A stretch of 60,480 nucleotides of DNA, counting the filler, from Hausera hauseri (taxonomy: Eukaryota), in assembly GCA_046269625.1 (NCBI GenBank). It is 10 parts of 10 records of this genome, joined end to end, with 100 filler letters (N's around TTAATTAATTAA, not from the genome) between each part and the next. Parts side by side here need not be neighbours in the genome. Positions count along the whole stretch, not along the records: positions 22,916 to 30,789 come from JBJURY010899205.1; 9 more parts are not named here. The stretch is one strand, 5' to 3'. Positions 24,860 to 27,518 of the stretch are shown in pieces. A model generated the notes under the pieces. The model had not been told where the DNA came from, did no database searches, and saw only the letters and a program-made list of their open reading frames with translations. Each line of letters opens with the position of its first letter. Within the stretch, counting starts at the first letter, position 1. Position numbers and translations under genes: made by a program.

Positions 24860-25300
24860 TTCAGCCAGGCACTATCATTTCGGAAAGTGGAGGGATTACG
24901 ACATCCTTTATTAATGAAACTGATTTTTCATGTTGATCCTTGTTAAAGGTTTTTAATTGACCCGTCTCTAAGTCGATATAGGCATTCTATAACTGGTTTA
25001 ATATGTTGCATCCGATTAGTATATCGTTGGTCAAATTTTTTGCCACTCTAATGGTGTGATTTATTGTTTGGTTGCAAATTTTAATTTTCGCATCTAATAC
25101 CATCTTTATTTCTTCTTCCATGCCAAATTCTCTCACATTAATTAGTGTTGTGTTCGGTTTTCTTAGCTTTCTTCTTAATTCTTTAGGTAGCTGGTCTTTT
25201 CCCATGATTGTGGTTGTGGATCCTGTATCCAACTAGGCTGTTAGTGGATATCCGTTTACTTCTATATTTATCTCTGGCCTTAGAGGTGATTGTGGCTCGT
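24860..25300 (-). pseudogene. Retropepsin-type aspartic protease
   Basis: RPEINIEVNGYPLTA*LDTGSTTTIM..DILIGCNIL (DTG and ILG motifs). Confidence 0.9.
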
Positions 25301-27518
25301 TTTTGTCAGTTGTTTTGCAGGTCGGTTCATGGTTATATGGTGTAATGTTTTCGTCATAACCCTTTTTATTTGTAATACCTGATACATGGGATAAATTGCT
25401 CTGTGTTTCAAATATTGAGAAGCTGACGGATTCGCCATCACTTGCTCGTTATAGACTCGTCCGTACTCTGCTAAATCCAGTTGCGGTAAATCTGTTACCA
25501 ACCTCTGTTTGTATTTCTGTTTTCGTGGTTTCAATGAAAGACTTTTCCATCTCTTTATATATTTATCGCTTTTTGGCTTAATCTCAGGATCATCATCATC
25601 ATCGTTTTTGTCATTTATATTACTATATAGGGAATTCTTTTCATTTCTTTCTTTAAACATTTTCTTTTTCCATTGAGCATCATGTTTCGCTAGAAAACAA
25701 CTAGCTACGGCCGGTATTACTGCTATCAAAATCTTCCAAGAACAACCTACTGCTGCATGTATGCCATAAGCCTTACTGAGAGCAGTGAATATCGTTCGTA
25801 TCGCACCAATAATAAAATATATTGCGAGAAATCCTGAGGCCTCTTGGCCAAAATGAAGAAGTTTTCCCACATCTTTTCCATGACATTCTGTGTAACTTTC
25901 TCTAAATAATCTTTTCCCATCAGTTTTCCCATTGTGGTGAACCTTCACCGTCCCACGTCACCCTTGTTAATTCCGTTATTACTCTTTCTCTTTGTTGAGG
26001 AAATAACAGCATTCGTCGATAATCTTCTAAGTTCTGTTGTGTGTATATTCCTCCTTGAGATATCCCCGTAAGTGGTTCGAATTTCTGATTCCTTTGTAAA
26101 TTTATCAAACTTAACATTTCTGGTTTCGATACTGTTTCTCTTTTAGGCATCCTGATCCACGTCTTTTCATCTAGTTTGAACATGGGTGCCATGTTAAAGG
26201 TGCAGTTATCCAGCCGAACTGGTTTTACGTTGATATCTAATAATATCATAGTTACGGGCATAATATATCTAGGCTCGGTATGATAAATCATTGGTAACTC
26301 CGACGTGCATTCTTCCGTTGGGATTATCATAACCTCCACCTTTTTACATTAAATAGTTATGAGTACTTCACCCATTACTCTTTCGATTACTCCGTCTCCA
26401 AATGGCATTACTGGTGCTACCATATCAGGATTTGTTATTACTAACGCCATTTTGTTTCGTATAATTTCATAGTTCAACTTGAACTCGTTTATTATTATTT
26501 CCCTATATAAACTTCTAATTTCTCTTCTAACATAATTGATCAAAAAGTCAATATTGTTATCAAAATACTGCGTTATCTTTATATCCTTTTTATCTATCTT
26601 TGTTTTTGCTTGTACTATCTCTTTTGGTGAGAGATAGATACCTTTATAGTCTTAAATATTTCTTCATCGCACTTATTTACCGTTCCTGTAATTTTAAATC
26701 GCATGATCTCTTCGGGATTTTCCGAGTATACTACCGTTGCAACTTCCGTCATTTTTAGTTTTTTAATTCCCTCTTTATATGTTGTTGTTTCTCTCGGCTG
26801 TTTTTCCACTGTCTTATTAAATTTTCCTTCTTTTAGCAAGGTCAAATGACATATATTTGAAGTTACTTCCTACGTCACTTTGGATTCGCCAGTATCGCAT
26901 TCGCCAATTTCATATTCTCTCTCGCTCATTGTCGTCATGAGTTTGGTCTGTGAGTCGAATAATCCTTCGTATTCCTTTAATTGAATTTGATAATCTTGAA
27001 TCGCCACTGTTCTTGGTGCTATCGTTCCTCCTACATCGTAATATACCTCTTCAGGTGCCTTTCCTCGTTTTATCTATTCTTCCGGCTCTGAAGATTTGTG
27101 TATATTTTATCTTATTCCGTACTTCTGGTATTTGTGCATTTTGCATCGTTATAACTCAAATTTTAAAGGCATCTTGACATTCAGCACGTGATATTATTAT
27201 TGACTCGAACGGTGTTGTTGGTTCCACTATGACCGAGTTTACCGAATAGTATGCACAATTAAACAGGAAGAAAGATTTCTTGACGTAACATTCCCTGATC
27301 TTTACTTTTCTAAATTCAGACTCTTGGTAAATCCAATATCTATGACCGCTTGTCGTTGTTAGTTGTTCTGGGTCAGCTTCGGGGCATTTTTCTAAATCAA
27401 CTAAGGAATACTTCTGTCCTTCCTTAGGTTTCGAGCAATCGTATGCTACTATTCCCATTGCCTTCGGCATCAGCAACGATGTTATTAAAATTAATTGGAA
27501 GATCTCCATCATCGTCAT
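25280..27518 (-). pseudogene. env: Chuvirus-like (class III, gB-related) envelope glycoprotein
   Basis: Signal IFQLILITSLLMPKAMG, then IVAYDC..YSLVDLEKC..VKIREC..NC. Later blocks: ALVITNPD..VMGEVL..CKKVEV..EECTSELP, CTFNMAPMFKL..W, GGIYTQQNLEDYRRMLLFP, and a TM region FGQEASGFLAIYFII..YGIHAAVGCSWKILIA. The order matches chuviral G. Confidence 0.85.

Follow-up and report, generated by a model that had tools for sequence, protein, structure and literature searches.

A decayed, Burro-like Ty3/Gypsy retroelement of Hausera hauseri with a chuvirus-type envelope gene and a predicted Bcl-2-fold domain ahead of its protease

Introduction

Burro elements, the giant Gypsy-like LTR retrotransposons of planarians, were described by Arkhipova and Yushenova in 2019 (PMC6431247); according to the accessible part of that paper, their env lies in frame between gag and pol and matches mononegaviral fusion glycoproteins. 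Chary and Hayashi (eLife 2026; PMC13524379) have since catalogued GAG-ENV-POL errantiviruses with an HSV/gB-type envelope in Nematoda, Bryozoa and Platyhelminthes. The portion of their table available to us contains nine flatworm elements with up to 215 copies, as well as nematode elements (30 of the 36 rows seen), and the available sections also report a chuvirus-like G adjoining gypsy pol in 114 arthropod elements. A 2023 survey (PMC10084718) had, in the part available to us, found no clear capture of G by Gypsy, a result that is superseded by PMC13524379. The words 'Bcl', 'ubiquitin', 'apoptosis' and 'Burro' are absent from the main text of PMC13524379. The capture of Bcl-2 by retrotransposons is treated in a single relevant paper that we found, PMC6431247, and a functional study of the Burro Bcl-2 domain was not found in the searchable literature; for both subjects, subscription papers may hold more.

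Here we describe a locus of Hausera hauseri contained in a 60,480-nucleotide stretch of DNA, referred to below as the window. We read it, with high confidence, as a decayed copy of a repeated Ty3/Gypsy retroelement composed of gag, a ubiquitin-like (Ubl) domain, a predicted Bcl-2-fold domain, a chuvirus-type env, protease and RT, the intact form of which was likely one long polyprotein; what we observe directly is which parts are present and in what order, where the window copy is broken, that it is repeated and that it has open-frame relatives. The layout is real and well supported, is already described in kind, and is Burro-like but compact.

Results

Layout and state of the element

Read piecewise on the minus strand, the decayed retroelement extends from about 30,800 to 22,916 of the window. 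Its features, together with a second pol piece beyond an assembly gap, are as follows.

30,476–30,789, minus strand: likely the 3′ portion of a 5′ LTR that is truncated by the assembly gap at 30,790 (from contigs of other copies)
29,212–30,168, minus strand: gag, with a capsid domain and a CCHC knuckle, three stops and a frame change inside the knuckle (Pfam and tblastn)
28,500–29,261, minus strand: charged linker and helical segment, in frame with the downstream cargo (aligns with residues 276–450 of the relative P0002)
28,287–28,442, minus strand: ubiquitin-like domain, a weak assignment (Pfam ubiquitin E 0.081; E 0.031 in P0002)
27,597–28,046, minus strand: predicted Bcl-2-fold domain, one internal stop at 27,866 (Pfam Bcl-2 E 1.5e-4)
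25,283–27,530, minus strand: chuvirus/Monjiviricetes-type class III (gB-like) envelope glycoprotein gene, G (PF24664; tblastn of P0004, P0005 and P0007; predicted gB fold of the relative P0004; hydropathy)
24,990–25,277, minus strand: aspartic protease, DTG (Pfam RVP E 4.2e-5; tblastn)
22,916–24,545, minus strand: Ty3/Gypsy RT and RNase H, with stops and one frame change at 24,157 (RVT_1 E 1.3e-24; RT_RNaseH_2 E 1.9e-35)
20,636–22,815, minus strand: a further Gypsy pol piece, different from the first, behind the gap (end of RT, RNase H and integrase; rve E 1.2e-9)

The gag, env, pol order of the gB-type GAG-ENV-POL errantiviruses is thus present. The intact ORFs on which their catalogue is based are missing from the window copy, which has stops and frame changes throughout and is dead, a statement that concerns the copy and not its family. 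From the knuckle through the start of G the window copy keeps a single frame, interrupted by six stops, and P0002 is open over the same span. G and the protease lie in different frames in the window copy, so that a programmed frameshift or a separate ORF is possible at this point.

The gag assignment combines modest Pfam matches (Retrotrans_gag E 0.025, zf-CCHC E 0.006–0.03) with a tblastn alignment of P0002 gag to the window (43% over 160 aa, E 1e-26), and the same relative aligns with the window over the ubiquitin-like region at E 4e-12. The Burro-like succession of a Ubi/SUMO-like and a BCL2-like domain just before env is found here too, its ubiquitin-like part weakly. MATH, BIR, ankyrin and dUTPase domains gave no Pfam match among the ORFs scanned.

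At the 5′ side, other copies have contigs in which 30,476 is linked to about 30,180 by a short tRNA-His-like primer site; compared by eye, it agrees with the 3′ end of tRNA-His at 10 of 12 letters (reference: the accessible part of supplement 1 of PMC13524379). From these joints the LTR probably ends near 30,476; no second LTR copy was found within the window. Just across the gap lies an intronless RING-finger ORF with one stop (30,901–32,247, plus strand; zf-RING_2 E 9e-10).

The envelope glycoprotein gene

Four of the five ORFs scanned in the G region matched PF24664 (Monjiviricetes_fusion) above the cut-off and in profile order, with E-values far beyond chance (1.8e-13, 1.4e-7, 1.1e-21 and 2.1e-9) and covering positions 1–116, 292–380, 383–506 and 531–636 of the 653 in the profile. 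The fifth ORF (26,618–26,869) had no Pfam match, yet it was covered by tblastn of intact relatives. These matches bear out the earlier note, which had called the gene a chuvirus-type glycoprotein from its motifs, and every motif named there was recovered on the minus strand: AYDC at about 27,446, GEV...C..VEV at about 26,370–26,330 with a stop codon within it, ELP, GIYT...FP and a transmembrane region, seen as hydrophobic segments within 25,840–25,680. The conserved cysteines of Chuviridae/Jingchuvirales G are kept. The gene has all its parts, namely a hydrophobic leader starting at an ATG at 27,518, an ectodomain and hydrophobic C-terminal segments. The description of G as near full-length accordingly holds for its extent; the gene is not intact, being broken by three stops (27,158, 26,872 and 26,351) and by three frame changes located with tblastn of relatives (near 27,060, 26,650 and 25,925).

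We modelled the fold on a relative, P0004, the G of which is 28–41% identical to the window G in pieces. The model (pLDDT 81.9, on a 91-row alignment) matched herpesvirus (HSV) gB in Foldseek at E 4e-14 and by structural alignment at Z 11.5 with an rmsd of 8.5 over 405 residues, and the G family profile matched gB at E 0.0014. P0004 is thus predicted to have a class III (gB-like) fold, and the suggestion that the gene encodes a class III fusogen passes on this relative.

Protease, reverse transcriptase and a second pol piece

The tail of G ends at 25,283 and protease homology begins six bases on, at 25,277 (tblastn), with the DTG motif at about 25,229; G therefore sits directly 5′ of the DTG protease, as originally read. 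The Gypsy assignment also stands, the best PDB matches of the RT being 4ol8 (E 7.7e-57) and the Ty3-G Gag-Pol structure 7q5b (E 1.8e-56), with foamy and gammaretroviral RTs behind them; PF17917 and PF17919 were matched as well. Protease, RT and RNase H follow one another in the window element, the 3′ side of which stops at the N gap at 22,816–22,915, and the full order of protease, RT, RNase H and integrase is seen in the relatives P0007, P0008, P0016 and P0024.

Beyond that gap, the second pol piece repeats RNase H at 37–44% amino acid identity and has no blastn match to the first. Its integrase (21,773–20,650) cannot therefore be assigned to the G-bearing element, and we rejected it as a part of the latter. 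Behind this integrase, the minus strand at 19,265–20,632 holds a hydrophobic stretch, then broken ORFs and a strong transmembrane segment (hydropathy 3.0 at 19,492), and this region may encode a second surface protein. P0007, P0008 and P0016 likewise extend well beyond the integrase, in tails that contain hydrophobic segments; these tails do not match the window, and the region itself gave no Pfam match above the cut-off.

Repeated copies and open-frame relatives

In two sequencing runs from two studies, 20,512 and 2,624 contigs matched the element at ≥80% likeness, figures that do not equal copy number, and one run (X1) may be the window's own source. Contigs covered 30 of 30 bins in both runs, most of them were under 95% alike, and G was covered as pol is. 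One contig with 48 differing letters spans 25,045–25,319, across the junction of G and protease, and a contig joint connects 27,527 with 27,617 over the border between the Bcl-2-like domain and G. With thousands of diverged contigs in two runs, the family has multiple genomic copies, as errantiviruses do.

A protein search of 1.84 billion representatives returned 583 proteins at E ≤ 0.001, of which 150 were listed and 27 scanned with Pfam. G and protease occur in one protein in 11 of these 27 (one weak), and G, protease and RT in five (P0007, P0008, P0016, P0017 and P0024), so that the adjacency of G, protease and RT for which a survey had been suggested extends to other proteins. P0002 is an open frame of gag, knuckle, ubiquitin-like domain, Bcl-2-like domain and G that ends within G, and it is collinear with the window at 33% over 686 aa (E 3e-104). 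Among the 150 matches listed, five have a Bcl-2-like region ahead of G (E ≤ 0.0024 in that small set), and one more has it by motif only. The composition of relatives varies: P0005 combines the Bcl-2-like domain with G and protease but has neither gag nor RT, in P0024 gag, G and pol occur together without a Bcl-2-like match, and the close relatives P0006–P0009 lack the Bcl-2-like region. None of the relatives carries the whole chain from gag through Ubl, Bcl-2, G and protease to RT in one protein. A word-index protein search with a single G piece gave nothing among 41 candidates, and no relative of the element was found in the viral contigs searched.

Several features of individual relatives were recorded alongside. 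Two or more aspartic protease domains follow G in P0005, P0006, P0007, P0009, P0010 and P0013, with up to four stretches in P0009. Segments that by eye look ubiquitin-like precede G in P0008, P0009, P0014 and P0032, with or without a Bcl-2-like domain, which suggests modular cargo; Pfam gave no confirmation of them in these four proteins. P0008, a G-protease-RT-integrase polyprotein, is annotated at NCBI as hypothetical and assigned to a Flavobacteriaceae MAG; it is likely animal DNA in a bacterial bin. P0148 (1,000 aa) has three Ig domains fused ahead of a full chuvirus-type G, which may reflect a wrongly fused gene model or the co-option of a G.

Origin of the envelope gene

We built a quick tree of the central G region from 59 of 131 eligible rows, comprising the window, 13 fused Gs and the best 45 of 117 others; two of the fused Gs, P0004 and P0014, gave no Pfam match to gag, protease or RT and were labelled fused by their N-terminal fusion. 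The window G grouped with all 13 fused Gs and six unlabelled fragments (SH-aLRT 99). The 39 stand-alone Gs fell outside this group; seven of them were looked up (three named chuvirus glycoproteins, one wasp gene and three unnamed). In line with this grouping, the window G is 36–43% identical to its best retroelement-type matches versus 20–28% to stand-alone full-length Gs. For six elements, RT and G identities correlate (Spearman 0.73, over 15 non-independent pairs), and the two trees share one split (100/100) and conflict on one, the placement of P0017 (94 versus 86 support), so the proposed comparison of G and RT histories returned agreement in one place and disagreement in another. Taken as sequence relationships, these results fit G and pol having descended together for a long time, with occasional exchange, and not a fresh capture. 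The G tree is unrooted and so says nothing on the direction of exchange with viruses.

An independent, lineage-specific capture of a chuvirus G by the Gypsy lineage of the window, as the earlier note had proposed, could draw on the conflict over P0017. It is very unlikely given the well-supported group formed by the window G and the fused Gs, its higher identity to retroelement-type Gs and the way in which RT and G identities track together; the Bcl-2-like neighbour common to relatives likewise points to common descent. As a new and independent acquisition the proposal is not supported, the window G grouping with other retroelement-borne Gs, an env between gag and pol having been published for Burro in 2019, and GAG-ENV-POL Gypsy elements and a chuvirus-like G adjoining gypsy pol being reported in PMC13524379. 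Another origin would be a chuvirus EVE inserted by chance into one Gypsy copy. Fossils of Jingchuvirales G frequently have Gypsy fragments on their flanks although no true capture took place, according to the accessible part of PMC10084718, and the decay of the window copy is compatible with such an insertion. Against this stand the diverged contigs that cover G as well as pol, one of them bridging the junction of G and protease, and the existence of collinear open-frame relatives; this explanation is largely refuted and we give it almost no credence. The earlier note's reading of G as part of the element, and not as an isolated EVE in a single copy, is upheld.

The predicted Bcl-2-fold domain

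The Pfam Bcl-2 match of the window domain spans positions 6–100 of the 100 in the profile, yet stays below the curated cut-off. BAX aligned with the window domain at E 0.035, gap-free over 64 aa, and a profile of the Bcl-2-like family matched Bcl-xL at E 4.6e-4. The corresponding domain of P0002, which is 41% identical to that of the window, was modelled with a pLDDT of 82.5 on a seven-row alignment. In a structure search (VIA) with this model, the top 35 rows were all of the Bcl-2 fold (Z 12.9, rmsd 3.2 over 130 residues), and the first unrelated row appeared at Z 5.3; Foldseek gave the same rank, with a best E of only 0.007 and listed rows all from the Bcl-2 family. The cargo domain of P0002 is thus predicted to have the Bcl-2 helical fold, a model of the relative and not of the window domain itself.

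What such a domain would do is less clear-cut, and its conserved residues bear on the question in two ways. A basic residue at the BH1 arginine position and the BH2 G-W are kept in seven of seven aligned domains, and the best Z scores belong to BH3-binding Bcl-2 members. By contrast, the N-W-G of the canonical BH1 NWGR is kept in none of the seven, only the basic residue remaining, and the absence of the BH1 glycine of cellular Bcl-2 proteins from all of them makes canonical BH3 binding doubtful. The domain is also 8–16% identical to its best structural matches, and vaccinia A52, B14 and A46 turn up in the same search at lower scores (Z 5.7–6.7). A role as a structural spacer, or as a non-apoptotic immune modulator of the poxviral kind, in place of a BH3-binding death inhibitor is thus a possibility to which we give less than even weight; it is compatible with our main assignment of the element. 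The predicted Bcl-2-fold domain would likely be anti-death or immune-modulating.

Other sequences in the window

Elsewhere, the window contains a gag-like ORF (11–907) beside a degraded SF3B3 fragment (955–1,892, minus strand), part of which (1,242–1,892) matches many animal phyla about equally, at 48–64%, and beside long ORFs broken by stops (1,961–4,545, minus strand) that we take to be HERC2-like. A third, unrelated and decayed Gypsy element with RT and RNase H matches lies at 49,551–51,700 (plus strand), its 5′ part resembling window positions 553–968 in inverted orientation. Copies of an ATCGAT-rich repeat family, internally periodic at 434 bp and 330 bp, are dispersed over 5,185–7,308, 32,547–34,202, 42,217–43,596 and 51,817–51,962, and a degenerate GA-rich microsatellite of about 7.5 kb, interrupted by several N gaps, occupies 9,478–17,000. 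The ORFs at 34,565–35,224 and 53,695–55,456 are presumably Polinton-like, without Pfam support.

Discussion

In its layout, the element is closest to Burro, with which it shares, as far as the accessible part of PMC6431247 describes it, a Gag with CCHC knuckle, Ubi/SUMO-like and BCL2-like domains, env, protease and RT, as well as the occurrence of decaying copies with stops and frameshifts. It differs from the planarian elements in being much smaller, the Burro ORF1 being given there as about 4,900–5,100 aa, whereas in the window the start of gag and RNase H lie within about 7.2 kb; in the MATH, BIR and ankyrin cargo reported for Burro, none of which was matched in the window ORFs scanned; and in the one knuckle seen, which we count as a further difference from the published description. 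Given the compact size and the lack of MATH, BIR or ankyrin matches, we call the element Burro-like and not Burro.

With the GAG-ENV-POL errantiviruses it has in common, in the sections of PMC13524379 at hand, a Ty3/Gypsy pol, a gB-type env upstream of pol and several copies per genome, whereas that catalogue, as available, is of intact elements only and the window copy is broken. A flipped env/pol order in a metavirus is similarly described for the nematode metaviruses with a captured RNA-virus glycoprotein (Sacco et al. 2022, as partly accessible). The Anakin elements of mosquitoes (Dezordi et al. 2020, accessible part of PMC7642597) also carry a chuvirus-type glycoprotein inside an LTR element, but are Bel/Pao, whereas the RT of the window matches Ty3. 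The G of Chuviridae/Jingchuvirales belongs to the same protein family (PF24664), with conserved cysteines in common and a gB-like fold predicted in a relative of the window G; the latter differs in being part of a retroelement polyprotein, besides its low identity to stand-alone Gs and its separate place in the tree.

The anatomy of the element, read with general knowledge of viral polyproteins, suggests how intact members most probably work. They would be made as one long polyprotein threaded through the ER membrane, in which the hydrophobic leader before AYDC would serve as an internal signal that sends the gB-like ectodomain into the lumen, while protease and RT would be brought back to the cytosol by the transmembrane segment at the C-terminal end of G. 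Signal peptidase and the element's own protease would free the parts, and the envelope would let particles fuse with other cells. In the relatives inspected, the leader closely follows the Bcl-2-like domain; left on the upstream piece, the same leader could act as a tail anchor for the Bcl-2-fold domain, as in cellular Bcl-2 proteins, and this domain would likely make the producing cell less prone to die or to mount innate signalling. A bolder combined proposition is that the host is not a planarian, that compact Ubl-Bcl-2-env Gypsy elements occur in more than one animal phylum, and that a functional Bcl-2-type death inhibitor is anchored in the membrane by the internal signal helix of the envelope, which would link the making of envelope to the protection of the cell that makes it in a one-to-one ratio; taken together, we consider this improbable.

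As one further, broken example of a published layout, the locus is of modest import in itself. Its analysis yielded two by-products: structural support, from a relative, that the BCL2-like motif of such elements is predicted to be a full Bcl-2 fold, and a collection of intact, unnamed relatives whose Gs accompany Gypsy pol and form a group separate from those of chuviruses. Should the Bcl-2 domain be functional, such transposons would prevent the death of host cells in the manner of large DNA viruses, an idea raised in print in 2019.
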